64,000 bases of DNA from an uncultured Gammaproteobacteria bacterium (GTDB lineage: Bacteria; Pseudomonadota; Gammaproteobacteria; Arenicellales; JAANXG01): NCBI GenBank assembly GCA_947259875.1, contig CAMYNX010000001.1, forward strand, positions 13,755 through 77,754. The letters are read 5' to 3'. The first letter of the stretch is position 1. The number at the start of each line of letters is the position of its first letter. A program made the translations under genes and the position numbers. Shown piece by piece: positions 17,522-42,352 of the stretch. Below the pieces are notes generated by a model. The model searched no databases and had not been told where the DNA came from. It was given only the letters and a program-made list of their open reading frames with translations.

Positions 17522-18919
17522 ATGAAGAGCTTTTCGAGGTCTACGATGAACAGAAGAACACTCCTGGGGATCCTGATATCGATTGCTACACTACCATGTG
17601 TGGTCCAGGCGGAATTTGGCACCGATATTCACGTTCAATCCGATAGCGACCCAATTCGTCTGGACATTGATCGAAGGACTTTTGACGAAATCAAATCGTT
17701 TTTGAAGCAAGGCTATCCCACGGTATCGGTGATGCTGCATGCTGTTTCGTTGGGCATGTCCATTAACGATGTTGTTTATCTTGCAGTCAAATCCAATCCC
17801 CAACGTGCAAAGGAACTCTATGATACCGCGGTGTCATTGTTACCCTCGTTGCCAGGCTGGGCTATACAGGATGAGGACAGTTCAGATCGCTACTATACCA
17901 ATTACACTGCAAGTGAACTCGGTGCGCAATCTACGGTTACCGAGGTGGCGCGGCGCTTTTTCGAAGAGAGCATGCGTCTTGCCCCATTTCCGGAATGGTA
18001 TGCCGGCGGTTATCACATCAAGGTATCGACCGATGAGTTAGCGGGGCTACTCAAGGATAGTTGGTGGTACCGGCAGGGAAACTTACAACCCAACTCCCCG
18101 CGCAGTGCTCCGAATCGTCCAATCTTTATTTCCCTATATGGGGACCGCAATGAAATTGTGATCGATAGCGGTACTGAGCGCATACGTAATGCACAGCAAA
18201 AGGGAGTGCGTGAGCTACCCGTGGTGTTTGTATACAATGACATGCGCACTCGGCCGATCAGCCGCTACAGCGCCGATGTCAAGGTCAAGGGAATCGTCGA
18301 TGATTTCTTCAACCGTGGACTCAAGCTCACCTCCGTCCCGGAATGGCGGCAGGTGGGTGATCATCACATGCTCGCTCCCGTCGCAGAGCTCATGGAACTG
18401 CTCGATACAATAGACAAAAAAGACGTTGACCCGGCCAGATGGTCAGCAATTACCCAGGATATCAGGAACAATGGTTTCAACGCACCACTGTTGGTTTCGT
18501 TACTCAATTCTGGAGACGGACGGATATGGGTCAACCAACCGGATCGCATTACCGCTGCGGCTGAGCTTGGTGTCGGCCAGGTACCGGTGGTGTTTTTGTA
18601 TCACGATCTCGGTCGGCCGCCCTGTGGTCAGCCGATTCGAACAACGGCGCTGATTTGTTCGGCCGCGCTTGCAGCGGGCGCCGATCCAACGATTTGCCAA
18701 CTTCCACCGGGCGCACGTGTGCCAGCACCAGGCTATGTTACGCCCGGTGGCGGCGCAGGTTTTCCGCCGCCGCCACCACCACCCTTACCACCGACGACCA
18801 CGGTGCCGCCACCAACGACAACGATCCCGCCACCGACGACCACGGTGCCGCCACCGCCGACGACAACAATACCACCGCCACCGCCACCCTCGCCAGTGTT
18901 GCCAGGAGGTAACCCTTAG
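17522..18919 (+). CDS. Secreted protein of unknown function: two homologous internal domains plus a C-terminal Pro/Thr-rich low-complexity tail
   Basis: Signal peptide with a twin arginine (MNRRTLLGILISIATLPCVVQA|EF). Internal duplication: aa 144-240 (RRFFEES..PFPEWY..RPIFISLYGD..ELPVVFVYND) versus aa 260-361 (DDFFNRG..SVPEWR..APLLVSLLNSGD..QVPVVFLYHD). The tail is FPPPPPPPLPPTTTVPPPTTTIPPPTTTVPPPPTTTIPPPPPPSP. I recognise no named family. Confidence 0.75.
   Translation: MKSFSRSTMNRRTLLGILISIATLPCVVQAEFGTDIHVQSDSDPIRLDIDRRTFDEIKSFLKQGYPTVSVMLHAVSLGMSINDVVYLAVKSNPQRAKELYDTAVSLLPSLPGWAIQDEDSSDRYYTNYTASELGAQSTVTEVARRFFEESMRLAPFPEWYAGGYHIKVSTDELAGLLKDSWWYRQGNLQPNSPRSAPNRPIFISLYGDRNEIVIDSGTERIRNAQQKGVRELPVVFVYNDMRTRPISRYSADVKVKGIVDDFFNRGLKLTSVPEWRQVGDHHMLAPVAELMELLDTIDKKDVDPARWSAITQDIRNNGFNAPLLVSLLNSGDGRIWVNQPDRITAAAELGVGQVPVVFLYHDLGRPPCGQPIRTTALICSAALAAGADPTICQLPPGARVPAPGYVTPGGGAGFPPPPPPPLPPTTTVPPPTTTIPPPTTTVPPPPTTTIPPPPPPSPVLPGGNP
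18788..18874 (+). repeat. Imperfect in-frame tandem duplication (42 nt + 45 nt) encoding PPTTTVPPPTTTIP-type units
   Basis: The string ccaccgacgaccacggtgccgccacc occurs at 18788 and again at 18830. The units are 42 nt and 45 nt, both multiples of 3, and lie inside the Pro/Thr tail of the 17522..18919 CDS. Confidence 0.85.
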
Positions 18920-18928
18920 GGGCGGACA

Positions 18929-20275
18929 ATGGTGAATCAACAGCGACAACCGGACCACAGCCAACGACGTGACCGGGATTACATTTTGTTGACCCGCCTT
19001 GCGGCGGGTATATCGGCAGCGTTACTAGCGATACCCGGCGCGACTCAGGAAAATGTTTTGGATACACAGGCTCTCCCCGACCAGCAACTGTTGTTTGGCG
19101 TGTCGCCAGCGGCTCAGACGAAGCAGTTGTTAAAGCCGCTGCCTGATGCGTTGCTCGAGGAGTTACTTGGATTGTATGCAGCACTTGGTGTTGGCGCGAA
19201 ATACCACACCAACGTCAGACGTACCCCCGATAATGAAATAAGCGATACCGCATTTGTGATCCAGCCGGAGCTTGCCTATCAAAATGATTTCGGTGGCCGA
19301 CACACAGGTGAAATCATCTATGCGGCAAGTATCGTGCGGCATAATGATCTCGATAATGAAGACACGACCAACCAAAGCCTGAATGGTGCCTTGCGTTTTG
19401 ACCTGACCCCGATACTCGATGTACGTGTGTTCGGACAATACAACGACGGTTTCGAGGAGCGCGGTGCATCTGGGTCCAGGACATTCATCGATAATGAACC
19501 AGACGAAATCGAGACCGTCACTTACGGTGGCGAAGTCATCTTTGGCCGTACGACGCAGAAATTTCAAGTTTCAGTGGGCGCCAGCAAATCTGAATCGAGA
19601 TATCAGAACAATAATCAGGAATTTCGCGATCGTGATTATGAACGTGTTCACGGGATATTGTTTTACAACGTCGCACCGAAGACCCATTTGTTTTTAGAGA
19701 CTAATCACACCGAGATTGATTACCCGCGACAATTCAGAAATCTAAATAGTGAAGAAGATTCCTATTATGCCGGTGTACGTTGGCGTGCATCGGAAATGAT
19801 AGAGGCGCTAGCCAAGGTTGGGCGCCTCGAAAAGGACATGGCCGATCCGGCCGTGCAAGACTTCGATGGCACGAGCTATTTGGGGAGATTCGTTTGGAGA
19901 CCGAAACCCTATAGCCGATTCGAGCTTTATGGGTCCCGAACCACCGAGGAAACTGCGCAGCAGGAATTTGATGCATCGGGGCCTGGCTTTTTTGTCAGCG
20001 AATTGATCGGTTTGAACTGGACACACGATTTTACTTCGACGTGGCAAGCATACGCATATTTTAATCACATCGATGATGATCATCCGGATGATCGACTAGA
20101 TACGATCAAAGACTACGGTGTCGGGCTCACCTACAGAATAAACAACTGGTTAAACGTATCTGCGCAGTATGGCGAAGTGGAGCGAGACTCCAACGAACCC
20201 ACGGTCGAGTATGAAGACCAGATAACATCGCTCTTTTTACGGGGCGATTTTAAAATGGGCACTGGGGCTCACTAG
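18929..20275 (+). CDS. Predicted outer-membrane beta-barrel protein of polysaccharide-export loci
   Basis: Signal-like segment LLTRLAAGISAALLAIPGATQ; the true start may be an internal TTG. Alternating-hydrophobic strands run throughout. The C-terminal barrel-closing region YGVGLTYRINNWLNVSAQY...ITSLFLRGDF (barrel-type aromatic, 9 residues before the stop) is present. It starts 9 nt after the preceding gene and lies just upstream of the OPX gene. Confidence 0.7.
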   Translation: MVNQQRQPDHSQRRDRDYILLTRLAAGISAALLAIPGATQENVLDTQALPDQQLLFGVSPAAQTKQLLKPLPDALLEELLGLYAALGVGAKYHTNVRRTPDNEISDTAFVIQPELAYQNDFGGRHTGEIIYAASIVRHNDLDNEDTTNQSLNGALRFDLTPILDVRVFGQYNDGFEERGASGSRTFIDNEPDEIETVTYGGEVIFGRTTQKFQVSVGASKSESRYQNNNQEFRDRDYERVHGILFYNVAPKTHLFLETNHTEIDYPRQFRNLNSEEDSYYAGVRWRASEMIEALAKVGRLEKDMADPAVQDFDGTSYLGRFVWRPKPYSRFELYGSRTTEETAQQEFDASGPGFFVSELIGLNWTHDFTSTWQAYAYFNHIDDDHPDDRLDTIKDYGVGLTYRINNWLNVSAQYGEVERDSNEPTVEYEDQITSLFLRGDFKMGTGAH

Positions 20276-20330
20276 AATGGTCCCTGGGCAGTGGGACTCA
20301 GATTAGTTTATCTTTACATCCCACATCATT

Positions 20331-21236
20331 ATGTATAAGTGGCTAGTATTATTGAGTGGGCTGACGTCAAGTTTTTCGGTGGTTACCAGCCTGCAAGCCG
20401 GCAATCTAGATGTTCCCTTCGATTTAGAATACCGGGTAGACGGACAAGTACAATCCGTCGCCGTCACCAAGCACCCCACCGCTGCTATTACGTCGAGCAT
20501 GATTGTAAGAGCGGCACCCGGCGCACACCGGGCCCTACGGGAATATCTGATCTCGCCGGGTGATATCATATCTGTAAGGGTGTTTGGTGAACCGGACTTG
20601 AGTTTGAGCAGCGTTAGAGTGCCAACTGACGGCCTTATCTCCTATCCGTTGCTCGGTCAGATTCGCATCAATGACCATACCGTGCGATCTCTCGAGCAAC
20701 GACTGACAGCGTTGTTAGGTAATGGCTTCTTGCGAAAACCTAAGGTGTCTGTGTCAATCGTCGAATATCGTCCGATATTTGTAAAAGGTGGTGTTAATTC
20801 GCCGGGCGCCCATGATTACGCGGAAGGACTGACCGTGGAAAAAGCGCTTGCGTTAGCCGGTGGTATGTCGAAGGAGGGAAGAGTGGAAGGTATCACTGTG
20901 CTCCGGGACAACGGTCGGTCCCAGGTCGTAAGCCTTGAATACTGGATATTGCCAGGCGACGTCATATCGATTCCCGAAGTGACCGAGATTGACATCAAGG
21001 AGTTCATTTATTTGCACGGCGAAGTAAAGAGCCCGGGAAGTTACGAATACAGAAAAGGTTTGACGGTCGAAAAGGCATTAGCGTTAGCCGGTGGTTTTAG
21101 CAATCGTGCCTCAAAACGAAAAATCCAGATATCTCGCGAAAGCGAAGGCGGTGATTTTGTTCGGCTAAAAAAGGTGGGACTGCATTTCACGGTCAAACCC
21201 GGCGATGTTATTACAGTGGGAGCAAGTTTGTTTTAG
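20331..21236 (+). CDS. Short periplasmic OPX (Wza-like polysaccharide export) protein
   Basis: Poly_export-type motif YLISPGDIISVRVFGEPDLS...DGLISYPLLGQI. Two SLBB-like repeats each contain GLTVEKALALAGG (aa 166-178 and 243-255). The signal peptide has no lipobox Cys. The protein ends right after the second repeat, so there is no Wza-type C-terminal OM helix. Confidence 0.88.
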   Translation: MYKWLVLLSGLTSSFSVVTSLQAGNLDVPFDLEYRVDGQVQSVAVTKHPTAAITSSMIVRAAPGAHRALREYLISPGDIISVRVFGEPDLSLSSVRVPTDGLISYPLLGQIRINDHTVRSLEQRLTALLGNGFLRKPKVSVSIVEYRPIFVKGGVNSPGAHDYAEGLTVEKALALAGGMSKEGRVEGITVLRDNGRSQVVSLEYWILPGDVISIPEVTEIDIKEFIYLHGEVKSPGSYEYRKGLTVEKALALAGGFSNRASKRKIQISRESEGGDFVRLKKVGLHFTVKPGDVITVGASLF

Positions 21237-23335
21237 TGGACTCGAGTTCGAATTTAAAACTTCAGACAGTTAAAACAGGGGACGATAATCGTGCGCCGTC
21301 GTTCCCTATGATTTTTTCTCAAGCCGATGATCCGCGAATCAACATTGGTGATTACCTAGGTGTTATCAAGCGCTATAAGTGGAGCATTATCGCGATGGCT
21401 TTATTGGGAGCCATTATAGGTGGTCTCAAGGCGATGTCCGGCGTGCCTGTTTACCGTGCAACCGTAACGATGGTGGTCGAACCGGATTTTTCTTCTTTGG
21501 CTTCCGCGAACCAAGGTGCGGTAGTCTATGCGACGGCGTGGCGTTTTTACGAGACGCAATATGATCTGCTGCGTAGCCGGGCCGTGGCGGAGCGCGTCGT
21601 CAAAAAGATGGATCTTGTGAATCTTGGTGGACCTAAGCCGCGTGTTACTTTTTCTATCATAGATGAAATAAAAAAGCTTGTTATTTCTCACACCGAGGAT
21701 AATTCTGAGCGCAATGAAATTAAACGACCCTTGACCGCCCAACAAGAAAAAGCAAAACGCGAAGCATTGTCCACTTTGATACAAGGAGGTGTAAGTGTTC
21801 GTGGGGGAGATAAAAGTCAACTTGTATATGTTTCGTTTGATTCTGTAGACCCGAAATTCTCGTCTGATGTCGCTAATTCATTAGTTCATTCCTACATAGA
21901 GCTAGAGTTGGAATCGCGCCTCAATCGTGCCAAACGCGCTAGTAATTGGTTGACTGAACGGTTAAACGACCTACGTGAAAAGCTTGCGTTGTCGGAACAG
22001 AAATTACAGGAGTTTCAGTCGCGAGAGGGAATGATCGACCTAAAGAGCATTGAACAACTCACAAGTAACGAATTGGGTATGTTGAATCAGGAATTTCTTA
22101 CCGCAAAAACTAAGTATTCAGAACTAGCTAAACGATACGGTCCGAAGCATCCTAAAATGCTAGCAGCCCTAGCTGAACTGGATGCCACCAAGCGGCGGTT
22201 GTCGGAGGCCTCGAGGCGCGTTGTCGATACCCGCACCAAGGAGTTTGCGTTAGCGGAATTAGAGCGCGAGGTGAGTGCAAATCGAGAACTCTATGATGTG
22301 TTTTTGAACAAGTTCCGGGAGACCGATTTATCGGTGGATAATCAACTCAGCAGCGCACGTGTCGTAGATCAGGCGTTACCACCCAAAGCACCGTTCAAGC
22401 CGGACAAAGCACAAATTCTTACGTTATGGGGTCTAATTGGATTCAGTATTGGAGTGTTACTTGCTTTTCTGAGAGATCATTTAGATAACACTTTTAATAA
22501 TATCGAAAAAATCGAGCAACGATTTAATCTCCCAGTACTCGGTGTTATACCTCTCGTGAACTTAAAAGATTTGAAAAGTTTTCAAAAGAATTCTGAGTTT
22601 TCGAAAAGCGATTTTATGGTCGGTCCGGAACGCTATTTCATGAACGAAAAAAGATCTTGGTTTTCCGAATCCGTAAATCATATTCGCACCGGGATTATGT
22701 ATTCAAATGTCGACGATCCGCCGCAGGTCATACTTATTACGTCATCAGTGCAAGCGGAAGGTAAGACGACCTTGGCTACCAATCTTGCTTTATCGCTGGC
22801 GCAAATTGGCGAGACTTTGCTGATCGACGCTGATCTGAGAAAGCCAAGACTCGATAAAATAGCCACAATTGACATCGAAGGCGGGTTGATTGATTTCGTG
22901 GCAGGAAACAAGTCCCTAGACGAAAGCATTAAAACAGATGCTGAATGTCCCCAGCTCTCTATCTTGGGGTGCGGTGTCATTCCTCCCAATCCTTTGGAAC
23001 TGCTTTCATCTAAGAAGATGGAAAATGCGATCAATGTGCTGAAAGATAGTTTTTCTCATATTATCATTGACACCGCCCCGATCTTACCAGTAAGCGATGC
23101 GATAGTCTTGAGCCACATCGTGGATGCAGTGTTGATGGTAATACAATCGGAGCATACGACTCAGAATATGGTGCGCGATGCGTTACGACGCTTGGAGGCA
23201 GCCAATATTTCTCCACTTGGATTCGTCTTGAGCAAAGTAGATTCTAAGAAGACGTCATATTATTACGACGGAAAGTATAGCCATTATTACGGTGGGTATC
23301 AGCAACAAGAAGCACTCGTTAAAAGAGCGTCTTAA
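21236..23335 (+). CDS. Polysaccharide co-polymerase (PCP-2a) / tyrosine autokinase, Wzc-like
   Basis: GTG start overlaps the OPX stop (TAGTG). N-terminal Wzz-type domain with two TM segments and a long coiled-coil. C-terminal kinase with Walker A SSVQAEGKTTLATNLA, A' LLIDADLRKP and B IIIDTAPILPVSDA. Tyr cluster SYYYDGKYSHYYGGY at the C-terminus. Confidence 0.92.
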   Translation: MDSSSNLKLQTVKTGDDNRAPSFPMIFSQADDPRINIGDYLGVIKRYKWSIIAMALLGAIIGGLKAMSGVPVYRATVTMVVEPDFSSLASANQGAVVYATAWRFYETQYDLLRSRAVAERVVKKMDLVNLGGPKPRVTFSIIDEIKKLVISHTEDNSERNEIKRPLTAQQEKAKREALSTLIQGGVSVRGGDKSQLVYVSFDSVDPKFSSDVANSLVHSYIELELESRLNRAKRASNWLTERLNDLREKLALSEQKLQEFQSREGMIDLKSIEQLTSNELGMLNQEFLTAKTKYSELAKRYGPKHPKMLAALAELDATKRRLSEASRRVVDTRTKEFALAELEREVSANRELYDVFLNKFRETDLSVDNQLSSARVVDQALPPKAPFKPDKAQILTLWGLIGFSIGVLLAFLRDHLDNTFNNIEKIEQRFNLPVLGVIPLVNLKDLKSFQKNSEFSKSDFMVGPERYFMNEKRSWFSESVNHIRTGIMYSNVDDPPQVILITSSVQAEGKTTLATNLALSLAQIGETLLIDADLRKPRLDKIATIDIEGGLIDFVAGNKSLDESIKTDAECPQLSILGCGVIPPNPLELLSSKKMENAINVLKDSFSHIIIDTAPILPVSDAIVLSHIVDAVLMVIQSEHTTQNMVRDALRRLEAANISPLGFVLSKVDSKKTSYYYDGKYSHYYGGYQQQEALVKRAS

Positions 23336-23373: not shown

Positions 23374-24069
23374 TTGTCCCGTACAATCAGCTTCACTGTC
23401 TTCACTGTGACAGCTATCTTGTTGTCTTGGTGTTTGATCTCGACGTTGGTTAACCGGGTTGTGAATACCTCCGGACAATATGTAACAGACCTTGACAACA
23501 GAGGTTGGATCGAAGACATAAACCACTGGTTCTCGACCGTAAATCGGCTGGAGACCGCTCTATCCTGGAATCCCCTGGATGTAGACCTGTTGATGCGGTT
23601 GGCTCGACTGTATCGGTGGCGCGCATTTGACCAAAGGTTATCTCCGAAACTAGCTAGGGAATCTCACCATCTAGCCATTCGATATGTAAAAGCCGCATGC
23701 CGCAGACGTCCATCATCGGGTTTGGCATGGGCTACCTTGGCAGTTGTAAAAGCTGCGGCGGGCCATATAGATCAGGAAATGATTTTGGCCTTAAATAGGG
23801 CCATGGCATTGGGTCCATGGGAACGGCAGGTTCAACACCAAGTTGTCTTGGCCGGTATTCAAACTTGGAATCGCTTGCCCACGAATACCCAACATCGCAT
23901 GCTCGAAATAGTCGACAGAGCACTCAAGGATTCAACACTCTCCAGAATCGTAATTGAGACCGCGATAAGACATAACTGGCAAGCTCCTCTAGAACCGTTA
24001 TTACAAAATAATCAGAGACTGAAGCGGTTATTCAAGAGCATTGACGTCGAATATAAGAAAGAACACTAG
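23374..24069 (+). CDS. N-terminally anchored helical-repeat (TPR-like) protein, function unknown
   Basis: TTG start. One TM segment (FTVFTVTAILLSWCLISTLV), then helical repeats such as SGLAWATLAVVKAAAGHIDQEMILALNRAMALGPWE. It is located between the kinase and the ligase-family gene. Confidence 0.55.
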   Translation: MSRTISFTVFTVTAILLSWCLISTLVNRVVNTSGQYVTDLDNRGWIEDINHWFSTVNRLETALSWNPLDVDLLMRLARLYRWRAFDQRLSPKLARESHHLAIRYVKAACRRRPSSGLAWATLAVVKAAAGHIDQEMILALNRAMALGPWERQVQHQVVLAGIQTWNRLPTNTQHRMLEIVDRALKDSTLSRIVIETAIRHNWQAPLEPLLQNNQRLKRLFKSIDVEYKKEH

Positions 24070-24082
24070 CGTGTTACAGACC

Positions 24083-25498
24083 ATGGCAAGATCGGTCAAC
24101 TTAATTTGTTATGTGTTGCTGCTGGTATTAATTGTCTGGTTACCGATCCCGCTGGGTAGCAGAAACGAATGGTCGACACAATTCATGGAGATCGTGTCGT
24201 TGACAATATTACTGATGTGGCTTGTTTCAAACAGCGTTACGCAATCGAAAGCATCATTAAAACTTCAGTCGGTTCGAGTTATATTGCTATTCATGGCATT
24301 GTGGTTGTGTTATCAACTATTTCAAGTTATGCCGCTACCCGAATTATTCATAAAGTTCCTCTCTCCGAGAACTTTTACTCTGTATAACCTCTCAGTGCCC
24401 GAAGCGGACCAAGCTTGGGCTTATGCGGTGAGTTTGGATCGTGATACCAGTCTTGAAGAAACTCTAAAGTACAGCGCATACGTTGCGATGTTTTTTCTAA
24501 TATTCGTTCTGATAGATACACGTCAACGATTAATTATTCTCGCGTATACAATCTTTTCAGTTGGATTGGCGCAATCTGTGTTTGGTATTTACGCCATGTT
24601 CACGGATCTATACTTAATACCTAAGGAAACAATGGACGGCCATCGATGGGTAATTGGAACTTTTGTAAACCGTAATCATTATGCTGCACATATTGTTATG
24701 ACCATTGGTATCGGGCTCGGATTACTATATTCGCAACCTACCTCATCAAGATCCTGGTCGAACACGCGAAATATTGTTTTAAACATAACAGACATGTTGC
24801 TAGGTAAAACTGGCTGGGTATTTATCTGCCTAGTTGTGCTTTTTTCGGCATTATTTTTAAGCCAGTCACGAGGTGGTGTGATTTCATTCATTGGCGCCTT
24901 CTTGTTCGTAACGATCGTGACGTTCAGTATTAAGGCGCGGAAAGATCGGGGTTATAAAATTGTTATTACGACCGGACTTATTATAGTTTTGTCAGTAGCG
25001 TGGTTAGGCCTCGGTGGCCTAACAAAAAGATTTGAAAAACTTGGAGAAGATGAACGATGGGAACAATGGAGGCTAACAACCTATATAATAAAGGATTACC
25101 CACTATTTGGAGTAGGAAGTGGGAATTATCGCTGGGTCTTTCCTAACTACCGCGAAGGCACGTTACGGCAATTGACTTATGATCATGCACATCAAGATTA
25201 TATGGAACTTTTGTCGGAACAAGGTGTAGTAGGAGCCCTCATATTAGGGATTGCTTTTCTTTTAATTATAAAGATGCTGTTGAAATCATACCGCACCCAA
25301 AATCACTTGTTGGGACGTGGCATGATATTCGGCTCTTTGATATCAATAACCGCATTTATGATACACGGTTTAGTCGACTTCAATTCTCGAATTCCTGCGA
25401 ATGCCGCTTACTTCTATGTAATTGCGGCTTTGGGACTGGCGGCGACAACGTTAAACAACAAAATTGGAAAAAAGCATCGCTATGAGAGCAACAAATAG
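24083..25498 (+). CDS. O-antigen ligase family (Wzy_C domain) polytopic membrane protein: WaaL, Wzy or PglL-type
   Basis: At least 10 hydrophobic segments. [15 protein letters not shown], then a large loop and [27 protein letters not shown], typical of the Wzy_C family. The track start is TTG 24041, inside the previous gene. GTG 24071 or ATG 24083 is more likely. Confidence 0.85.
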
Positions 25499-27449: not shown

Positions 27450-29285
27450 ATGTGCGGTTTAGCCGCTATTTTTGTTTACTCCAATCGCTCGTCCAGCGTC
27501 TCAAGGCGCGAACTCGTGCAGATGCAACATCAAATGCGTGATCGTGGACCAGACGGAGAAGGCGTCTGGCTGGGAGAATGTCTCGGATTGGCCCATACAC
27601 GTCTATCCATCCTCGATTTGAGCGATGCGGCTGCCCAACCGATGGTGGATCCAACAAGTAGCAGCGTATTGGTTTACAACGGAGAGATCTACAATTTTAG
27701 AGAAATAAGAACAAAACTCGAACGCAAAGGATATGTGTTTCGCTCTACAAGCGACACCGAGGTGTTGCTATATCTATACCGCGATAAGGGCGAGCGCTTA
27801 GTTGACTATTTGCGTGGTATGTATGCTTTCGTTATCTGGGATGCCAATAAGAAAACCTTATTTTGTGCACGTGATCCATATGGAATTAAACCGCTGTATT
27901 ACTCCGACGACGGTAAGACATTGCGCATCGCCTCTCAAGTAAAAGCGTTACAAGCAAGCGACGCGATATCGAAAGAGCCAGATCCTGCCGGTGTTTGTGG
28001 CTTTTATATATTTGGACATGTGCCGGAACCGTACACGTATTTACGAGAAATTAAATCGTTACCAGCAGGAAACATTCTGCGATGCCCACTTGGTGGAAAA
28101 CCAGACATCCGCTCTTTTTTTTCGATCTCCAACGTGTATGTTGACGCAAGGGCGCAGCGGCACGATGTACCAAGGCCAGGACATTTTGCGCGAGCAATTC
28201 GAGAATCTGTAATTCATCATATGTTGGCGGATGTCCCGGTAGGTGTTTTTCTGTCGTCGGGAATAGATTCCGGAGCCATATTAGGACTGATGCGCGATGT
28301 CTCCGATGAACCAATCGATGCCTTCACATTGTCTTTTGACGAATATAGAGGGAAAGAAGAAGACGAAGAGCCACTGGCTGCAATGGTTGCCGACTATTAT
28401 GACGCCCATCACAGACCGTATGTATTTCCAAGAGATGAAATATCCAGATTGATACCGGAATTCTTAGAGGCAATGGACCAACCGTCTATTGATGGATTAA
28501 ACACTTGGCTAATGAGCCATGTCGCGAAGGAGCATGGCTTAAAGGTTGTATTATCCGGTCTCGGCGGCGATGAGTTGATGGGAGGTTATCCGTCGTTTCG
28601 TGATATCCCGAAATCTGTAAGACTATTGCGTTTTATTAACAAGGTACCAAAGCTCGGTGAATCGTTTCAACAAATAGTGCAAGTACTGCATAACGTCGGT
28701 TTACCAGTGAATCCGAAATTGGGTGGATTATTGTTACTCGGTGGGAGTTACGCTGGTGCCTATTTGCTGAGACGTGGCTTGTTCATGCCTTGGGAACTGC
28801 AGAATCTGGTAGGAGAGGAATTTGCCCATGAAGGTCTTTTGACACTCTCTCCTATCGCCCATATACAAAACGGTTTACAGCCAGATCCTGAAACAAATTT
28901 TGGCCGAGTCGCCGCCTTGGAATCCACATATTATTTACGTAATCAATTACTACGTGACTCGGATTGGGCGGGGATGGATCACTCAGTCGAAATTCGCACT
29001 CCACTCGTGGATGCGGTGTTGTTGGATGAACTTGCGCCTCTTCTTGTCGATTCAGATGCCACCAGCAATTTGAAGGAACTATTGGCGCAGGCCCCGCGAA
29101 GACCATTGCCAGATAAGGTGATCAACAGGAAGAAAACCGGTTTTACATTGCCCATTCCAATATGGTTAGAAACGATGCCAATGCTCGATACTTGGTGCCG
29201 TGTACCGTTACTGGCTAGAGAAGGATGCCACTGGGCACGGCGGTGGGCTTATACGGTCATGTCACCAATCATCCAGCCATCGTAA
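27450..29285 (+). CDS. Asparagine synthase-family glutamine amidotransferase (WbpS / EPS-locus type)
   Basis: N-terminal nucleophile MCGLAAIF, YNGEIYNF, and a PP-loop variant FLSSGIDSGAI. 611 aa and located inside a glycan cluster. Confidence 0.85.
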   Translation: MCGLAAIFVYSNRSSSVSRRELVQMQHQMRDRGPDGEGVWLGECLGLAHTRLSILDLSDAAAQPMVDPTSSSVLVYNGEIYNFREIRTKLERKGYVFRSTSDTEVLLYLYRDKGERLVDYLRGMYAFVIWDANKKTLFCARDPYGIKPLYYSDDGKTLRIASQVKALQASDAISKEPDPAGVCGFYIFGHVPEPYTYLREIKSLPAGNILRCPLGGKPDIRSFFSISNVYVDARAQRHDVPRPGHFARAIRESVIHHMLADVPVGVFLSSGIDSGAILGLMRDVSDEPIDAFTLSFDEYRGKEEDEEPLAAMVADYYDAHHRPYVFPRDEISRLIPEFLEAMDQPSIDGLNTWLMSHVAKEHGLKVVLSGLGGDELMGGYPSFRDIPKSVRLLRFINKVPKLGESFQQIVQVLHNVGLPVNPKLGGLLLLGGSYAGAYLLRRGLFMPWELQNLVGEEFAHEGLLTLSPIAHIQNGLQPDPETNFGRVAALESTYYLRNQLLRDSDWAGMDHSVEIRTPLVDAVLLDELAPLLVDSDATSNLKELLAQAPRRPLPDKVINRKKTGFTLPIPIWLETMPMLDTWCRVPLLAREGCHWARRWAYTVMSPIIQPS

Positions 29286-29293: not shown

Positions 29294-30478
29294 GTGCAAT
29301 CCAAACGGGTATTGATATCTACGATTGTGCCACTCTGCGGAGGTGTTCCGCAAATGACGCGATTCATCGTTTATCGGGTGCTAGATTTAGGACTCGAGCC
29401 GGTCATTGGGTACTATCAACCTTACCGGATCGCGCCAAGTCTATCCGTGCCTAGTTACCGTTTACTGCGTGGCAAAATTGGCAAGCAACAACATCAAGTA
29501 TTCAATGGTGTCGAAGCGCATGCCTTGGGCGCTTGGTTGCCAGAACTCGAGTTCACACACTACTGGCCTACTCGCCTGTGGAGAGAGCTGCTATCCAGCT
29601 GCGAATATCATATATCGATATCGGGAAATTGTTTAGCCGCCACACCTTACCTCTCAATTAACAAACCGTTCTGGTCTTGGGTGGCCACACCCTGGCACGA
29701 CGATCGGCAAGATCGTGTTCGGACCTTTCCACTGCTGAGGCGTTGCTTGGACAAATTCGTCAACTCACCTGCTATATCAAGGCTCGAAAGAAAAATATTG
29801 CGTACTGGTAATGTCGTTGCGTTGAGCCAATACACACAAAAAACACTTAACAAACTCGTAGATCATGAGGCAATCAGGGACGTTATGCCGATGCCGATCG
29901 ATGTAAACTTCTTTGTCCCGCAGAATAGAGATAAATATCACCGGTCAGTTGGATTTGTGGGTAGGCTTGATGATCCACGTAAGAACATAGGACTTCTTAT
30001 CGACACCATAGCGTATTGTCACCAAAACGATTACTTTATCACCGCAATACTAATTGGTGGCGCTATCAACCACATGTTACGTTCAAGAATTCAAGAACTT
30101 GGGCTTACCGAACACATCAAGATCATAGGCGAGGTCCAAAGAGCTGAGTTGCCGAATTATTTGCGAACCATGGATGCCTTTATTATTCCATCTCATCAGG
30201 AAGGTTTGTGCATCGCGGCTTTGGAGGCCATGAGTTGCGGAGTACCGGTGATCTCAACCAGATGTGGTGGGCCAGAGGAATACGTTATTCACGAAAAGAC
30301 AGGATTATTGGTGGATTCTAATCCTGCCGCCGTAGGAAATGCGCTGTTACATCTTCTTAATAATAAGAAATTTCATAGACGTTTATCAGAGCAAGCGCGA
30401 AAAATAGTCGTAACTCGGTATACCCAGCAAATTGTTAAAAAAGCATTCGAAAATAGTTTTAATAATACATTTCATTAA
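29294..30478 (+). CDS. Glycosyltransferase, GT4 family (GT-B fold)
   Basis: C-terminal EX7E-type region IIPSHQEGLCIAALEAMSCGVPVISTRCGGPEE. The track ORF starts at 29225, inside the amidotransferase gene. In-frame GTG 29294 gives MQSKRVLISTIVPLCGG, a typical GT4 N-terminus. Confidence 0.85.
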   Translation: MQSKRVLISTIVPLCGGVPQMTRFIVYRVLDLGLEPVIGYYQPYRIAPSLSVPSYRLLRGKIGKQQHQVFNGVEAHALGAWLPELEFTHYWPTRLWRELLSSCEYHISISGNCLAATPYLSINKPFWSWVATPWHDDRQDRVRTFPLLRRCLDKFVNSPAISRLERKILRTGNVVALSQYTQKTLNKLVDHEAIRDVMPMPIDVNFFVPQNRDKYHRSVGFVGRLDDPRKNIGLLIDTIAYCHQNDYFITAILIGGAINHMLRSRIQELGLTEHIKIIGEVQRAELPNYLRTMDAFIIPSHQEGLCIAALEAMSCGVPVISTRCGGPEEYVIHEKTGLLVDSNPAAVGNALLHLLNNKKFHRRLSEQARKIVVTRYTQQIVKKAFENSFNNTFH

Positions 30479-30724
30479 TGCTCGTTGCCGAATCAATTTT
30501 GTTGACTGAGGGGCCCCGCCTGATCGGGATAAATGCCGCCGTACACTATGCAAGAATTACGTGACGTGTATAACGATTTATCGCGTCGAAGACCAAAAGA
30601 TTATCGTTTCTCATCTAGACCGGGCCGCCTCGATACTGTCTTGATCTCCGGAGATAAGTGCAAGAAATGGGATTGGACCGCTGATTAGATGTATTGCTAA
30701 CAATAAAGCACTATTCCATACGCG

Positions 30725-31582
30725 ATGAGACATACAAATCAAATACACGACGAATACTTCGGGTCCGATCACGTCACGGTGATAGAGCCCCCTAAAGGCT
30801 GGCATATGTTCGACTTGAGAGAGCTTTGGGCGTATCGAGAGCTTCTTGGGGTGCTCACTACACGAGATATTAAAGTCCGCTACAAGCAGACCGTGCTTGG
30901 CGTGACTTGGGCAGTTATTCAACCAGTCGTAACAATGATTGTGTTTACTATCGTGTTTGGCAAGTTGGCGAAACTTCCCACAGATGGATACCCTTATCCG
31001 ATATTTGTGTATTCGGCGTTGTTACCTTGGATGTTTTTTGCCAACGCAATCGGTACTGCGGGTGGATCCCTTATCGGTTCAAGTCACTTAGTGAGCAAGG
31101 TGTATTTCCCAAGACTAATTATCCCCTTGTCGTCAATTGGTTCGGGCCTGATTGATCTAGCAATATCTACAGGTATTTTATTGTTGTTGATGTTGTATTA
31201 CGGTGTGCCCCTGACAATGCAGATATTTGCTGCACCGATATTGCTAATCGCCGTTATCTTCACAGCGCTGGGGGTCGGAACACTCCTATCTGCGTTAACC
31301 GTAGCCTATCGTGACTTTCGTTTCGTGGTTCCGTTCATGATACAAATATGGCTTTTTTGTACCCCGGTAGTCTACGCAATGAGTCTGGTTCCCGAACACT
31401 GGCAATGGATCCTTGGGTTAAATCCGATGACCGGCATCGTAGAAGGGTTCCGAGCGGCGTTTCTCGGTAAGCCTTTCGATTTAACTACGCTAATAATCTC
31501 TTTCTTTATTTCAACACTTATATTTCTAATCGGTATAGCATATTTTGAAAAAGTAGAACGTCGGTTCGCTGATATCATTTAA
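30725..31582 (+). CDS. wzm: ABC-2 type polysaccharide/O-antigen export permease
   Basis: LWAYRELLGVLTTRDIKVRYKQTVLGVTWAVIQP followed by 6 TM segments. It is directly upstream of the ATPase. Confidence 0.9.
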   Translation: MRHTNQIHDEYFGSDHVTVIEPPKGWHMFDLRELWAYRELLGVLTTRDIKVRYKQTVLGVTWAVIQPVVTMIVFTIVFGKLAKLPTDGYPYPIFVYSALLPWMFFANAIGTAGGSLIGSSHLVSKVYFPRLIIPLSSIGSGLIDLAISTGILLLLMLYYGVPLTMQIFAAPILLIAVIFTALGVGTLLSALTVAYRDFRFVVPFMIQIWLFCTPVVYAMSLVPEHWQWILGLNPMTGIVEGFRAAFLGKPFDLTTLIISFFISTLIFLIGIAYFEKVERRFADII

Positions 31583-31611
31583 AAAATAGAATATACAAGA
31601 TACACAAAGTT

Positions 31612-32907
31612 ATGAAAGGTGCTGTTCGTGTAGATAACTTAGGAAAACAATATGTGATTGGTGGCGCCGAGCAAATCTATAGATCTTTTCGCGAGATGGT
31701 TGCTGGTGTTTTTACATCGCCGTTCCAAAAATACCTGAAGTTAAAGGGGGCAGTAAGAGAAAAAGATAAGTTCTGGGCTTTGAGAAATGTGAACTTTGAA
31801 ATACGACCCGGAGAGGTAACCGGCATTATAGGACAGAATGGTGCAGGGAAAAGCACACTCCTAAAAATATTGAGTCGAATAACCTGCCCAACAGAAGGAA
31901 GGGCTATTTTAAGTGGAAAAGTAGCCAGTCTGCTTGAAGTTGGCACTGGATTTCATCCTGAACTTACAGGCCGTGAAAACATATATCTGAACGGCACAAT
32001 ACTAGGTATGACACAAAAGGAAATTCGATCCAGGTTCGATGATATTGTGTCATTTGCTGAAATCGAAGTGTTTTTGGATACCCCGGTTAAGCGCTATTCA
32101 AGTGGAATGTACGTTCGTCTGGCATTTTCCATAGCAGCCCATCTTGATCCGGATATACTAATCGTGGATGAGGTCTTAGCGGTGGGAGATGCTTTGTTTC
32201 AAGATAAGTGTCTTAGAAAACTGAGTTCCGCGTCTAAAGAGGGAAGGACTGTTTTATTTGTAAGTCACAACTTGAAAATGATTTCGGCTCTATGTGATTC
32301 GTGTATTGTGCTTAATAAAGGCAACTTACTATCTATGGGAAATGTTACAGATCAAGTTAATTTGTATCTTTCTAAACTATCGAACGAAACAGAACTCGTT
32401 ACAGACAGAGAGGAAACGAAAGAACATGGTCCTATGGTAATTGATGACGTCCGGATATTTTCTACAGCAAATAACAGTTCAGTGATTAAATTAGGTGACG
32501 ACGTTGCTTTTGAATTTAATTACAAAGCAGATAATTTGCGCGGTAAAGCTATTTCATTCGGGTTTTCGTTACAAGATATTACCTCTGGTGAGTTTGTCTT
32601 AGTGTATTACAGTGAATTCAATAACATGTATTTTTATGACGTTAATGGCCAAGGGACTATCAGATGTCTGATTGATAGACTCCCAGTAGTACCAGGAAAG
32701 TATCTTGTTGCTTGTCGAGCGGTGGCAAACAACCGAGAAATATACTTTAAAGAAAATCTAACCACCGTCATTATCAAGGAAGGCGACTATTACGGTACCG
32801 GCCGTCTAGGTCATCGCGCGGCAGAGCTTACAAAGATCTTAATTGACGGGGAGTGGGAGCATCACGTTGGTGAAACTATACATGGCGACGTGGGTGAACT
32901 GAACTAA
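31612..32907 (+). CDS. wzt: Polysaccharide/O-antigen ABC transporter ATP-binding protein with C-terminal Wzt_C-like domain
   Basis: Walker A GQNGAGKSTLLK, signature YSSGMYVRLAF, Walker B ILIVDEVLAVGD. An extra beta-rich C-terminal region of about 175 aa follows (IDDVRIFS...LPVVPGKYLVACRAV...), as in Wzt proteins that bind capped glycans. Confidence 0.9.
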   Translation: MKGAVRVDNLGKQYVIGGAEQIYRSFREMVAGVFTSPFQKYLKLKGAVREKDKFWALRNVNFEIRPGEVTGIIGQNGAGKSTLLKILSRITCPTEGRAILSGKVASLLEVGTGFHPELTGRENIYLNGTILGMTQKEIRSRFDDIVSFAEIEVFLDTPVKRYSSGMYVRLAFSIAAHLDPDILIVDEVLAVGDALFQDKCLRKLSSASKEGRTVLFVSHNLKMISALCDSCIVLNKGNLLSMGNVTDQVNLYLSKLSNETELVTDREETKEHGPMVIDDVRIFSTANNSSVIKLGDDVAFEFNYKADNLRGKAISFGFSLQDITSGEFVLVYYSEFNNMYFYDVNGQGTIRCLIDRLPVVPGKYLVACRAVANNREIYFKENLTTVIIKEGDYYGTGRLGHRAAELTKILIDGEWEHHVGETIHGDVGELN

Positions 32908-32963
32908 ATAATTGCGGACAACTTGTATTTAGCGATGGGTTATGTAGTGCTTTGCATCGTAAC

Positions 32964-33743
32964 ATGGGTCTAAGTATCAATACGCTTAGGCAAGTAAAAC
33001 ATGGATCAAGACGTTGGCTATGGAATGTCTTATATCAAGGTTGCAAATATATTGTGCTCCGGCGACTTAACGGAACCATCGCGTCCGGACTATTTAAAGG
33101 GATGCAGTTTACAACGTCATATATTTCCAGTATGCCCATGCCGAAAATATTGGGTACATACGAAAAAGAGATTCAAGAGGTCTTACAGAAATGGAGGTAT
33201 GAAAAATTTAATCGTTTTATTGACGTCGGCGGGGCAGAAGGATTCTATGCGGTAGGAATAGCCAAACAATTTAACGTTAAAGAAGTGATTGTTTACGAAA
33301 TGCTTGAAGAAGGGCAGGTAATGATTCGTATGCTCGGCGAGCAAAACCGCATCTTGCCATGCGTAAAAATATATTCTAAATGTGAAGAACATGATTTATA
33401 CGAAATATGTGATGAGCGCGCCAAAGATTTAGTGCTCATTGATGTTGAGGGCGCCGAGATCGATTTATTGAGCTCAAGAGTTGTCGAGAAGCTTCGCAAC
33501 AGCACGGTACTGGTAGAAGCCCATGATTTTAAAGTAACTGATTGTACTAATCTTGTTAATCAGAAGCTTTCTAGCACACATGTGACAAAGATAATCTCCA
33601 GTAACTTGCGAAAAAAGACGGATTTTCCGCTTTACTATCCGTTCCCTAAAGCAATTAAACTCGCCATGATGGATGAGCAACGACCAGAGATAATGAATTG
33701 GATCATTGCTAGCCCCAAAAAACACGGTATATGCCTGTCCTAG
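32964..33743 (+). CDS. FkbM-family SAM-dependent methyltransferase
   Basis: GTYEKEIQEV...FIDVGGAEGFYAVGIAKQF matches the FkbM pattern (G-x-Y-E ... DVGAN-G). The track start is TTG 32952; the first ATG is at 32964. Confidence 0.75.
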   Translation: MGLSINTLRQVKHGSRRWLWNVLYQGCKYIVLRRLNGTIASGLFKGMQFTTSYISSMPMPKILGTYEKEIQEVLQKWRYEKFNRFIDVGGAEGFYAVGIAKQFNVKEVIVYEMLEEGQVMIRMLGEQNRILPCVKIYSKCEEHDLYEICDERAKDLVLIDVEGAEIDLLSSRVVEKLRNSTVLVEAHDFKVTDCTNLVNQKLSSTHVTKIISSNLRKKTDFPLYYPFPKAIKLAMMDEQRPEIMNWIIASPKKHGICLS

Positions 33744-33856
33744 AAATAGTTTTCGCAAAGGCCCGTAAATATTATTAAAAATAATATCAATCGTATACCA
33801 CTGTTGCTACGGGAAAGTTAGAAAGTCTTAGAAGGTCACATCGGCCGGAAAATATT

Positions 33857-35209
33857 GTGAAAGGCACTATATTGTTTATATCGCCTAGCGCTTATCCTAT
33901 TGGGGGTGTTGCGACATGGTTGGATTACGTTTCAAAAGGTCTACAGGAAAAAGATTGGCGAGTTGTCGTAGGCCTTGCCTCTGGGAAATGGCACGATGCA
34001 GAAACATACAGAGAAAAACATGGCTGTTTGACGGTTAGGCCAATAAACAATAACTCTGGTTCCAGAGAAGGTCGTATTCGGGCAATTGAAGATATTATAA
34101 AACGAGTCAATCCAGAATTAGTGGTTGGCGTAAATATACCCGATTGCTATATAGCCGCGTTAAGAAGTCGTGCGATTAAAGTATGGCCGAAAATTGTGAT
34201 GACAGTGCATGCGATACAACCAGACTTCTACGAAGATATAAGAAAGTATTCTGAGGTGCTAGACGGCGTAATCTGTACCAACAAACTTGCTTGTGAGTTA
34301 GCGAAGGTGGATTCTGGGTTTAACGAGAAGCAAATATATTATGCGCCCTATGGTGTGTCAGTTAATAGTAAAAACAATATAATTAGAGCGCCCGGGGATC
34401 CGCTAAGGCTTGCATATGTTGGACGTTTAGAGCAATGGCAAAAACGTATTCATGATTTACTGCCCATTTTGGCGCACTTAGAAGATGCTGGAATTAATTA
34501 TCAGCTACTTATTGCTGGAACCGGACCTGAAGAAACCTGGATCAAGAGTCAATTTGGGTCTCGGATTGAAAAACAATTTGTTCAGTTTCTTGGTGAAGTT
34601 CAATTACATGAAATGAACAAAATAGTTTACGATCGGACTGACGCATTAATCGTAACATCAGCGTGGGAGACGGGGCCAATCAACATTTGGGAGGCAATGG
34701 CATCGCGGGTCCCTGTTGTGACAAGTCAATATATTGGGTCGGGTTTAGAAAATGTTTTAAGTAACAACAAAAACTGTCTGACCTTTACAATCGGAAACAC
34801 ACGGCAAGCAGCAGAATGCATAATGCAATTACTAGACAGGAGCATTAGAGAAAAGATAGTACGAGGTGGACATCGACTCGTAACAACAAAATACAATAAA
34901 AAGTTATCGGTTGAAGCCTGGGACCGTTGCTTCACGAGTATTTTGGTGTCTTCGGATAACAAGGAAGGAGTCAAACAGCCATTGACAATTACTCCCGGTG
35001 GGCGTCTTGATCGAATATTTGGGATAAGATTGGGTGAAACGATACGTTGCACATTCGATAGGAGATATGCCCATCAATCAGCCGGCTCGGAGTGGCCACA
35101 TTCGTATGGCATTCGTGAAGTTCATGATTCATCATTTTGGTCTATGGCTAGACGGCTAGACGAGGTCGCCGCCGAGGAAAATTCTCAGACCCAAAGTCGC
35201 GCAAGTTAA
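33857..35209 (+). CDS. Glycosyltransferase, GT4 family
   Basis: GTG start. N-terminus ILFISPSAYPIGGVATW. C-terminal IVTSAWETGPINIWEAMASRVPVVTS. Confidence 0.82.
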   Translation: MKGTILFISPSAYPIGGVATWLDYVSKGLQEKDWRVVVGLASGKWHDAETYREKHGCLTVRPINNNSGSREGRIRAIEDIIKRVNPELVVGVNIPDCYIAALRSRAIKVWPKIVMTVHAIQPDFYEDIRKYSEVLDGVICTNKLACELAKVDSGFNEKQIYYAPYGVSVNSKNNIIRAPGDPLRLAYVGRLEQWQKRIHDLLPILAHLEDAGINYQLLIAGTGPEETWIKSQFGSRIEKQFVQFLGEVQLHEMNKIVYDRTDALIVTSAWETGPINIWEAMASRVPVVTSQYIGSGLENVLSNNKNCLTFTIGNTRQAAECIMQLLDRSIREKIVRGGHRLVTTKYNKKLSVEAWDRCFTSILVSSDNKEGVKQPLTITPGGRLDRIFGIRLGETIRCTFDRRYAHQSAGSEWPHSYGIREVHDSSFWSMARRLDEVAAEENSQTQSRAS

Positions 35210-35233
35210 CATAATAGCTGGGGATTAAAACGT

Positions 35234-36157
35234 ATGGTCTCGCTAACTATAACTGTCTGTATTTGCACGTATAATCGAGCAAAATACCTGGCACATACGC
35301 TTTCTAGCCTGACCCAATTGAAAGATACGGAGACTTTAAGTTGGGAACTTCTTGTAATCGATAACAACTCCAAAGATCAGACGAAGTCAATTATCGACGA
35401 ATACAACAATCAACTCCCTATACGATACGTTCGTGAAACCGAACAAGGATTGTCACACGCGCGCAATAGGGCGTTGAGAGAATGTAATGGCAAAGTTTTG
35501 ATCTTCATGGACGACGACGTTAAAGTCGATATTGATTGGTTATCTGCCTATGCAGACGCCGTAAATCGCTTTCCAGATGCTGATTATTTCGGTGGGCGAA
35601 TATTACCTCAATGGGTGACTGAAAAACCAAAATGGATTAGAGACGAAACAATGCCCCTCATAGGAGGACTATTAGTCATATGCGATAATGGCGTGGAAGC
35701 TCGCTATTACCGTAACACTGATGTAGGCCCTTTCGGTGCGAGCTTTGGAATACGACGCCGTCTGTTCGAAAAATTGTCACCATTTAGGGTGGATCTTGGG
35801 CCTAAACTTGATATCCCTGGGCGCGGTGATGACTACGAGTATCTGCTACGCGCTAAGCGTGCCGGTTATCGTGGCATTTATTGTGGGCCCGCTCTGTGTT
35901 ACCACCAAACCGATCCGAGAAGACTACGAATTAGGTATATGTATCGCTTTGGTGTACAAAAAGGAATTGCGGAGAAAAGAATTTCAATTGAAAAACATTC
36001 TGCTGGATCGATTATTCGCGAACTCAATTATGGAATTCGCGGACTGTTGCAATTGTGCAAAGGTCGTGGTGATCGTTTCCGGCAATGTGTGATCAATATG
36101 GGAATTCAACGCGGACTGCGACAAAACATATGCAATATAGAGGGCACACGAATATAA
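35234..36157 (+). CDS. Glycosyltransferase, GT2 family
   Basis: LTITVCICTYNRAKYL...ELLVIDNNSKDQT...VLIFMDDDV (DXD). Confidence 0.85.
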   Translation: MVSLTITVCICTYNRAKYLAHTLSSLTQLKDTETLSWELLVIDNNSKDQTKSIIDEYNNQLPIRYVRETEQGLSHARNRALRECNGKVLIFMDDDVKVDIDWLSAYADAVNRFPDADYFGGRILPQWVTEKPKWIRDETMPLIGGLLVICDNGVEARYYRNTDVGPFGASFGIRRRLFEKLSPFRVDLGPKLDIPGRGDDYEYLLRAKRAGYRGIYCGPALCYHQTDPRRLRIRYMYRFGVQKGIAEKRISIEKHSAGSIIRELNYGIRGLLQLCKGRGDRFRQCVINMGIQRGLRQNICNIEGTRI

Positions 36158-36281
36158 ACGTTGACACTATCGCAAGTTTAAATTTGAATTAAATGCTATA
36201 GATTAAATATATATTTTCGTTCTAACCACCGCTTTCTTTTCAATCAACGTTTTTAACGCTATTTCATAAACAGACTGTTAC

Positions 36282-37265: not shown

Positions 37266-37458
37266 AACATGGCATGAAGACATCTTAACCTTGCAAGTAT
37301 ATCGTTATTAGAGTGTTTTTCTGGCGAAAAGCTATTGCCAACCGGTTTTAAAAAATGTCTATCCATCCTAACTAGCGGTCTGCAATAAAGACATCATTAT
37401 CTCGTCTCCTTGGTTAAACAATTGCCCGTATGTCCAAATAAAGCGAGTTATGAACTAG

Positions 37459-42197: not shown

Positions 42198-42352
42198 TAG
42201 TAAATGCAAAGTATGTAACACCTAGTATGAGACGACGTTCATTGTTTATATTGTTTTGCAGCCGTATCATGCGCGACGATTAAATACGATACACGGATTG
42301 ATTGGCAAAGATTTCGCCTAATAGTGTCGTTGTTTGTATTCATTGAATAATA

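Follow-up and report, generated by a model that had tools for sequence, protein, structure and literature searches.

A composite outer membrane translocon for polysaccharides, in which a protein of the outer membrane polysaccharide export (OPX) type is coupled to a separate beta-barrel, was put forward, with experimental backing, by two groups in 2022 (Schwabe et al., PMC9601211; Saidi et al., PMC9603273). Schwabe et al. described 453 couples of short OPX and barrel proteins from 10 phyla, named VpsN/VpsM as such a couple, extended the class to D1D2D2 variants of more than 250 residues, and reported AlgE as the closest structural homologue of Myxococcus xanthus EpsX (PMC9601211). Direct binding of an OPX protein to its porin and to its polysaccharide co-polymerase (PCP), together with a mechanism, was subsequently described for WzaB/WzpB (Mellouk 2026, PMC12819527). 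Here we analyze a gene pair of this kind in a 64-kb stretch (the window) of contig CAMYNX010000001.1, which comes from an uncultured marine gammaproteobacterium. The initial annotation had pointed to the composite model from Myxococcus and suggested that a 448-residue barrel protein and the 301-residue OPX protein encoded behind it fit that model. That model is published (PMC9601211, PMC9603273, PMC12819527), and the synteny of the pair, the AlgE-like fold of the barrel, WzaB as the best solved match of the OPX protein and the hydrophobic-Phe tail of the latter agree with the suggested fit. By analogy with the Myxococcus systems, the two proteins would form a composite translocon of a Class-3 OPX protein and a Wzp/EpsX/VpsM-type porin at the outer membrane end of a polysaccharide secretion route, a reading to which we assign a probability of roughly 0.8.

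A check of the list of open reading frames (ORFs) found both genes on the + strand as the initial annotation had called them. The barrel gene (18929-20275) is separated by 55 nt from the downstream OPX gene (20331-21236), whose stop codon overlaps the start of the PCP gene (21236). The pair belongs to a co-directional polysaccharide gene cluster on the + strand that extends from about 17.5 to 47.5 kb of the window. A promoter and terminator scan of 17.2-25.6 kb returned weak consensus matches only, which neither support nor contradict a single operon.

The OPX protein was assigned to Class-3 (D1D2D2), without lipidation or a C-terminal helix, on the basis of Pfam, AlphaFold2 (AF2), a profile search of the PDB, and Foldseek. 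Its signal peptide (residues 1-23, 20331-20399) is of the Sec/signal peptidase I (SPI) type, with an inferred cleavage site at ...SLQA/GN; close homologues show the pattern ...LQA/DN at the putative cleavage site. The mature protein begins with a linker of about 46 residues (residues 24-69, 20400-20537) that is probably disordered, as its pLDDT is below about 56. This is followed by the D1 or Poly_export domain (PES, PF02563; residues 70-145, 20538-20765), for which the Pfam match covers residues 70-143 with an E value of 2e-22 and 79.6 bits (cut-off 28). Next come a first SLBB (beta-grasp) domain, matched by Pfam SLBB in two stretches and seen in the AF2 model (residues 149-214, 20775-20972), and a second SLBB domain, matched by Pfam SLBB/SLBB_2 at residues 226-296 and likewise modelled (residues 225-298, 21003-21224), which is predicted to lie nearest the outer membrane. 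The AF2 model, built from 49 homologues, has most of residues 70-301 above pLDDT 90 and residues 1-69 at low confidence. It consists of D1 and two beta-grasp domains, with no helix past residue 252; the last strand spans residues 293-298, and only Ser-Leu-Phe (21225-21233) follows.

The best match in the PDB profile search was 9n9a (E 7e-28), with E. coli Wza next. The Foldseek listing identifies 9n9a as the crystal structure of the Class-3 OPX protein WzaB of M. xanthus. With the OPX model as the query, Foldseek returned Wza at an E value of about 5e-20 and WzaB at 2e-13 with 32% identity. In the profile-to-Wza alignment, the OPX profile is 10 residues shorter than Wza in D1, opposite the Wza segment ...QYRSASDTGNW.... 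The beta1-beta2 loop forms the tyrosine-ring gate of Wza, and its loss is a hallmark of Class-3 OPX proteins (PMC12819527). The gap, whose position was assigned through that paper, would thus correspond to a short beta1-beta2 loop and a missing Tyr-ring gate. The protein therefore has the Poly_export domain, SLBB domains only after D1, the putative short loop, a barrel gene within five genes and a hydrophobic/aromatic tail, all of which are used to recognize Class-3. It differs from the class in two non-defining properties, namely a length of no more than 280 residues, which is an empirical search cut-off of Schwabe et al., and N-terminal lipidation. The folded part is 232 residues long, and the 301-residue precursor exceeds 280 residues because of the disordered linker.

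The OPX protein has no cysteine at all, and the region upstream of its ATG contains eight codons, none of which is a start, before an in-frame stop; a lipoprotein form is therefore impossible. Hydrophobic 19-residue windows are confined to the signal peptide, and the C-terminus has none. The statements of the initial annotation that the protein lacks a lipobox Cys, that it stops right behind the second SLBB domain and that it has no Wza-type outer membrane helix were thus borne out, with the SLBB_2 match ending at residue 296 of 301 and three residues remaining after the last strand. A Wza-type helix or lipobox was rejected from the AF2 model, the zero Cys count and the missing C-terminal hydrophobic window.

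A missing helix alone does not rule out membrane spanning, because the 256-residue PslD crosses the outer membrane with a C-terminal beta-strand segment at residues 221-254 (2026 cryo-EM, PMC13434223). The OPX protein might then be self-spanning, with either an amphipathic helix of the Wza type that had escaped notice or a C-terminal strand that contributes to a parallel eight-stranded barrel of the PslD type. However, only three to five residues follow the last SLBB domain, compared to a segment of about 34 residues in PslD, and a PslD-type C-terminal barrel was rejected because of this short tail. The alignment of PslD to the OPX profile is also partial and covers positions 57-158, no hydrophobic window lies beyond the signal peptide, and both PslD and Wza are lipoproteins, while the OPX protein of the window has no Cys. 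A self-spanning OPX protein is consequently regarded as extremely unlikely.

The membrane-spanning part of the proposed translocon would be supplied by the neighboring 448-residue protein, which was identified by Pfam, AF2 and Foldseek as an outer membrane beta-barrel porin similar to VpsM, EpsX and Wzp. It carries a long Sec-type signal peptide (about residues 1-38), to which its hydrophobic 19-residue windows are confined. The initial annotation had predicted a barrel and had suggested both a search against the BBP2_2 profile and structure predictions for the two proteins. The Pfam BBP2_2 family (PF10082) matched residues 83-438 of the window protein at 115.5 bits, well over the gathering score of 23.7, with an E value of 3.4e-33. 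The single-chain predictions gave an 18-stranded barrel for this protein, as well as the helix-less D1 plus two beta-grasp fold for the OPX protein. DSSP placed the modelled barrel proper at residues 81-443 (19169-20257). The mean confidence of the model was pLDDT 80.9 with a pTM of 0.77, and most of the 18 beta-strands were at pLDDT 85-95. The even-numbered connections are eight short turns of two to six residues on the predicted periplasmic side, and these alternate with mostly longer odd-numbered loops. The model thus has the classical outer membrane topology of 18 antiparallel strands with both termini in the periplasm. A conserved FG(V/I)xPAAxTQR stretch lies between the signal peptide and strand 1 (residues 55-70, 19091-19138); it is modelled with low confidence and could be a periplasmic plug or docking segment. 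A crude estimate from strand parity gave 15 Lys and Arg against 19 Asp and Glu among the lumen residues, a figure too rough to bear on the charge of the polymer.

When the barrel model was compared to the PDB with Foldseek, AlgE ranked first and recurred down the list with TM-scores of 0.47-0.53, followed by Occ porins and TonB-receptor barrels. PgaA and Wzi were absent from the top 50 structural matches. A search of the PDB sequences with the barrel profile returned no match, so the link to AlgE was made by fold comparison only. The barrel family is large, with 11,403 clusters (50% identity) at E <= 1e-3 and 2,118 clusters at E <= 1e-30. In the Joint Genome Institute (JGI) annotation, some of the barrel homologues are called VpsM and some of the OPX homologues VpsN.

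The barrel could instead have a role other than export, as a surface-anchoring lectin similar to Wzi or as a general porin linked to the OPX gene by chance. Capsule loci encode Wzi, which likewise has 18 strands and has homologues near some Class-3 OPX genes (PMC9603273), and the Occ porins scored similarly in Foldseek. However, the Pfam match is to BBP2_2 and not to a Wzi family, Wzi lies outside the top 50 structural matches, the homologues EpsX and WzpB are needed for export, and the OPX protein has no means of crossing the outer membrane alone. The tight adjacency of the two genes across related loci, described below, argues for an obligate partner. In our judgment, a barrel that is not the export channel is therefore very unlikely.

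The conservation of the gene pairing was analyzed in 80 loci, which were obtained by scanning one genome per species with the OPX alignment; barrel genes were called with a hidden Markov model (HMM) made from the barrel alignment. Of the 80 loci, 69 have the barrel gene immediately 5' of the OPX gene and invariably on its strand, with a median gap of 47 nt, and 76 have a Wzc-like PCP gene downstream of the OPX gene. The exceptions comprise loci from Granulosicoccaceae/Chromatiales, two from Nitrospira in which OPX genes stand in tandem, a further locus (L037) from a Chromatiales metagenome-assembled genome (MAG), and one contig end. The whole order of serS, a 465-residue secreted protein, barrel, OPX, PCP, (VpsP-like), Wzy_C and epimerase is kept in about 20 loci, which belong to uncultured marine Gammaproteobacteria, Arenicella and related MAGs. 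The syntenic core that is conserved consists of barrel, OPX, PCP, (VpsP-like) and Wzy_C, while the region downstream of it differs among the relatives. OPX forms with one SLBB domain (about 176 residues) occur in the same clade in Vibrio, Marinobacterium, Colwellia and Endozoicomonas. A Vibrio sp. locus (L076) has the order WcaJ-like phosphoglycosyltransferase (PGT), barrel, OPX and PCP, which parallels vpsL-M-N-O. In two loci from Nitrospira/Nitrospirales MAGs (L030, 1-8351; L033, 1336-4589), large OPX-like ORFs follow one another in tandem, three to four in number, and neither locus gave a match to the barrel.

Two sequence motifs of the OPX protein correspond to sites of protein contact in WzaB. 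The WzaB tail Ser202-Phe203-Phe204 is needed for binding to WzpB in vitro and for secretion in vivo, and in the published model it touches the porin, an 18-stranded barrel, at its eight periplasmic loops (PMC12819527). The ending ...PGDVxxVGxS(L/W/F)F is shared by 118 of the 120 best OPX homologues; a final (W/L/F/I)-F pair occurs in 118 of these 120 and in 79 of the 80 loci. In the alignment of 49 OPX sequences, F301 is present in all 49 and S299 in 47, and the protein of the window ends in ...GASLF. The shared terminal motif indicates that this C-terminus is natural and not truncated. From this conservation and by analogy with WzaB, the Ser-Leu-Phe tail is a candidate porin-docking motif and the probable counterpart of the Phe-Phe tail. 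The second motif is a basic pair in D1, R135-K136, which directly precedes P137 (48 of 49 sequences) and is basic at position 135 in 34 and at position 136 in 35 of the 49. In the alignment to 9n9a, this pair lies opposite Arg106-Arg107 of WzaB, the site that binds the PCP WzcB (PMC12819527).

Taken together with the Myxococcus precedents, these features suggest how the machine might work. The OPX protein would be exported by the Sec pathway and remain in the periplasm, where it would form a ring, an octamer by analogy, of three stacked tiers (D1, SLBB and SLBB). The Wzc-like co-polymerase would be met at its periplasmic crown by the D1 tier, with the basic loop at R135-K136 as the probable contact. 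The top SLBB tier would carry eight Ser-Leu-Phe tails that face the eight short turns on the periplasmic side of the barrel, a geometry that the turn number of the barrel model fits. The barrel would then provide the membrane-spanning pore that the OPX protein cannot form, and the polymer, assembled at the inner membrane, would reach the cell surface by way of the co-polymerase, the lumen of the OPX ring and finally the barrel. The stoichiometry, the contacts and the export function in this scheme are all carried over from the Myxococcus systems.

Several points weigh against the composite translocon. The similarity between the barrel and AlgE is modest (TM-score of about 0.5), and many barrels with 18 to 22 strands score alike. 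WzaB needs its N-terminal lipid, while the OPX protein of the window cannot carry one. Finally, no Wzx flippase was found among the scanned ORFs of at least 150 residues in the 64-kb window, and a Wzm/Wzt exporter is encoded in the same cluster.

The last of these points concerns the pathway that feeds the translocon, and for this the genes downstream of the pair were considered. The PCP gene (21236-23335, +) encodes a PCP-2a or Wzc-like co-polymerase (Pfam Wzz, GNVR and AAA_31) that contains a tyrosine autokinase domain and is rich in Tyr at its C-terminus; it scored 166 bits against NCBIfam TIGR01007 (cut-off 108). It is followed by a gene for a VpsP-like single-pass protein (23374-24069, +) with one transmembrane-like segment, for which the NF038257 score of 51.6 bits is under the cut-off of 125; this gene is present in 26 of the 80 loci. 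The next gene (24041-25498, +), present in 40 of the 80 loci, encodes a polytopic membrane protein of the Wzy_C family, a polymerase or ligase with about 10 transmembrane segments (PF04932, 68.6 bits against 31.7). A PCP of the Wzc type and a Wzy_C protein, both encoded beside the OPX gene, suggest a Wzy-type route.

The same translocon might instead be fed by an ATP-binding cassette (ABC) exporter. The polymer would then be built on undecaprenyl-pyrophosphate-linked GlcNAc (Und-PP-GlcNAc) by WecA and glycosyltransferases, and would cross the inner membrane through Wzm/Wzt and not through Wzx/Wzy. A Wzm/Wzt-type ABC-2 exporter (30725-32907, +), with a Wzt of 431 residues that has a C-terminal extension, is encoded inside the co-directional cluster that holds the Wzc, Wzy_C and OPX genes. 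An FkbM-family methyltransferase gene adjoins it (segment 30725-33743, +), and wecA (46466-47512) lies in the same cluster 25 kb downstream of the pair. The lack of a Wzx-family match in the scan described above agrees with this route, and Schwabe et al. placed 14 short-OPX/barrel pairs in ABC-dependent pathways (PMC9601211). In contrast, the adjoining PCP is a Wzc-type PCP-2a with an autokinase and is followed by Wzy_C, both of which are typical of Wzy-dependent systems, and the syntenic core from the barrel gene to Wzy_C is kept while the downstream region varies. The GC content is 0.40-0.43 across 30000-44000, the glycosyltransferase and ABC-exporter segment, compared to about 0.47-0.49 in the flanks. 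This drop, together with the variable region downstream of the conserved core, suggests an exchangeable, serotype-like module, and the segment at 30-44 kb may be a separate O-antigen-type module, which argues against a role of Wzm/Wzt in feeding the pair. An ABC-dependent supply is thus an unlikely, though not negligible, alternative.

Other genes of the cluster may also bear on the polymer. A 472-residue protein with about 11 predicted transmembrane segments (39604-41022, +) is encoded between glycosyltransferase genes; it has no Pfam or NCBIfam match, and could be a divergent polymerase, ligase or flippase. An AsnB-type amidotransferase and a NodU-like carbamoyltransferase are also encoded in the cluster (27450-29285, + and 44464-46209, +), which hints at an amidated or carbamoylated polymer. 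The AsnB-type protein scored 349.6 bits against the amidotransferase model of XrtA/PEP-CTERM systems, under the cut-off of 816.9.

The lack of a lipid on the OPX protein deserves separate consideration. Class-3 OPX proteins are predicted to be lipoproteins (signal peptidase II, SPII) in about 50% of cases and Sec/SPI substrates in about 30% (PMC9603273). In WzaB, the only system that has been dissected biochemically, lipidation is strictly required for outer membrane association, oligomerization and function; the Phe-Phe tail is not sufficient to bring the protein to the outer membrane. A lipobox-like motif is present in only 2 of the 120 OPX homologues. Likewise, most of the retrieved loci with a readable OPX N-terminus have a Sec/SPI-like start with no lipobox, and a lipobox-like motif occurs in a minority; the Sec/SPI-like starts are found both in long forms and in mature forms of 150 residues. 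The near-absence of the lipobox indicates that non-lipidation is a trait of the clade and not a peculiarity of the window gene. Given the lipid requirement of WzaB and an OPX protein that cannot be lipidated, at least the assembly step must differ.

The N-termini of the OPX proteins vary within the clade. Most of the proteins of 250-270 residues have no extra region, and the linker of about 46 residues is restricted to the window protein and the six relatives closest to it. Arenicella-type OPX proteins have N-terminal extensions of 150-280 residues with SH3_3 domains. Many OPX proteins of this type, of 410-525 residues (P0075, P0082-P0085, P0093, P0099, P0102 and others; loci L009-L021 and L031), are extended in this way, several of them with SH3_3 domains (PF08239), and end in ...GASWF. 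Such extensions may serve as an alternative anchor for non-lipidated OPX proteins.

Directly upstream of the pair, 10 nt from the barrel gene, lies a gene for a conserved secreted protein of 465 residues with a Cys-containing segment and a Pro/Thr-rich tail (17522-18919, +). In 21 related loci this gene is flanked by serS on one side and by the barrel gene on the other, and all 21 database homologues are hypothetical or unnamed. Neither the protein itself with Pfam and NCBIfam nor 20 family members with Pfam gave any match. It contains an internal duplication (29% identity over 98 residues, E 2e-9), and both repeat copies close with the motif LPVVF(I/V)Y. The sole structural lead was a weak match in the PDB profile search (E 0.003) to SbnI, a protein with a ParB/Srx-like fold. 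The 465-residue protein is possibly an accessory component of the export machine, for which it is a candidate only.

A more far-reaching proposal is that, in this clade, the OPX ring assembles on the porin without any lipid, by means of the hydrophobic-Phe C-terminus and N-terminal modules (the linker, or SH3_3 domains), with the 465-residue protein as a fourth, tethering or scaffolding component. We consider this proposal speculative and decidedly improbable. If true, it would differ from the lipidation-dependent mechanism of WzaB. Almost the whole clade, including its Vibrio-type members, has no lipid anchor yet keeps the putative docking tail at the C-terminus, and would thus be well suited to studies of how Class-3 OPX proteins that are not lipidated find their porin and assemble on it. 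Non-lipidated assembly is also the sole part of the present finding with residual novelty. For this uncultured marine gammaproteobacterium, a confident annotation of the pair as a Class-3 OPX protein with its partner porin is possible, and beyond this annotation its significance is slight: the architecture, the D1D2D2 variant and the non-lipoprotein state have already been catalogued, and the pair is an ordinary further example.

Compared to known systems, the barrel shares with AlgE, the alginate export porin of a synthase-dependent system and its top structural match, a predicted fold of 18 strands. However, the identity is about 10% with no relationship at the sequence level, and AlgE partners AlgK and not an OPX protein; a modelled complex of AlgE with EpsY, used as a negative control, is reported to have given no consistent interface. 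P. aeruginosa PslD is similar to the OPX protein of the window in being short and helix-less and in belonging to a Wzy-type system (PMC13434223), but it is a lipoprotein whose 34-residue C-terminal segment makes its own parallel beta-barrel, whereas the window OPX protein has a partner barrel. With E. coli Wza (Class-1), the OPX protein shares a stack resembling D1-D2-D3, composed of Poly_export and two beta-grasp domains. In contrast to Wza, it lacks the D4 amphipathic helix, the lipobox and, according to the alignment, the Tyr-ring loop, and it would need a separate pore.

The similarity to M. xanthus EpsY/EpsX (WzaX/WzpX) and WzaB/WzpB is closer. In these pairs, as in the window, the OPX protein has only Poly_export and SLBB domains, a hydrophobic-Phe tail and a basic pair in D1, and lacks both the D4 helix and, as judged from the alignment, the Tyr-ring loop; the neighboring gene encodes an AlgE-like barrel, modelled here with 18 strands, and a Wzc-type PCP is next door. 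In Myxococcus, the OPX proteins have the D1D2 form and 190-217 residues and are lipoproteins for which lipidation is essential, whereas the window protein is a 301-residue D1D2D2 form with a Sec/SPI signal peptide and a linker of about 46 residues, and its barrel gene is located upstream of the OPX gene, unlike in Myxococcus. Its score against the NCBIfam EpsY model is 73 bits (cut-off 320).

The initial annotation had also linked the pair to PEP-CTERM-type exopolysaccharide loci, a link that reduces to distant homology. The EpsL (TIGR03014) and EpsE (TIGR03028) models of the Methylobacillus-type/PEP-CTERM systems are the best NCBIfam matches of the two proteins, and the pairing of a barrel with a short OPX protein is the same. 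However, the scores are far under the cut-offs (57.7 bits against 275 for EpsL, and 131.6 against 262.65 for EpsE). In the 64-kb window, no exosortase was found by Pfam in ORFs of at least 150 residues, and no PEP-CTERM-like tails were found with a regular expression. An XrtB/PEP-CTERM system was rejected on these grounds.

With vps-II of Vibrio cholerae (VpsM/VpsN, VpsO and VpsP), the locus shares the order barrel, OPX, PCP and VpsP-like protein, the last of these with a VpsP score below the cut-off. The sequence comparison was made with the Vibrio sp. locus, and gave 20% identity for the barrel and 38% for the OPX protein; unlike the window protein, the OPX protein of this Vibrio type has one SLBB domain and 176 residues. 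The locus also differs from vps-II in having no VpsL-type PGT gene upstream of the barrel gene, where the 465-residue secreted protein is encoded instead, with WecA 25 kb downstream. Overall, the locus looks VPS-like, and closer to Vibrio VpsM/N/O/P than to the PEP-CTERM type.

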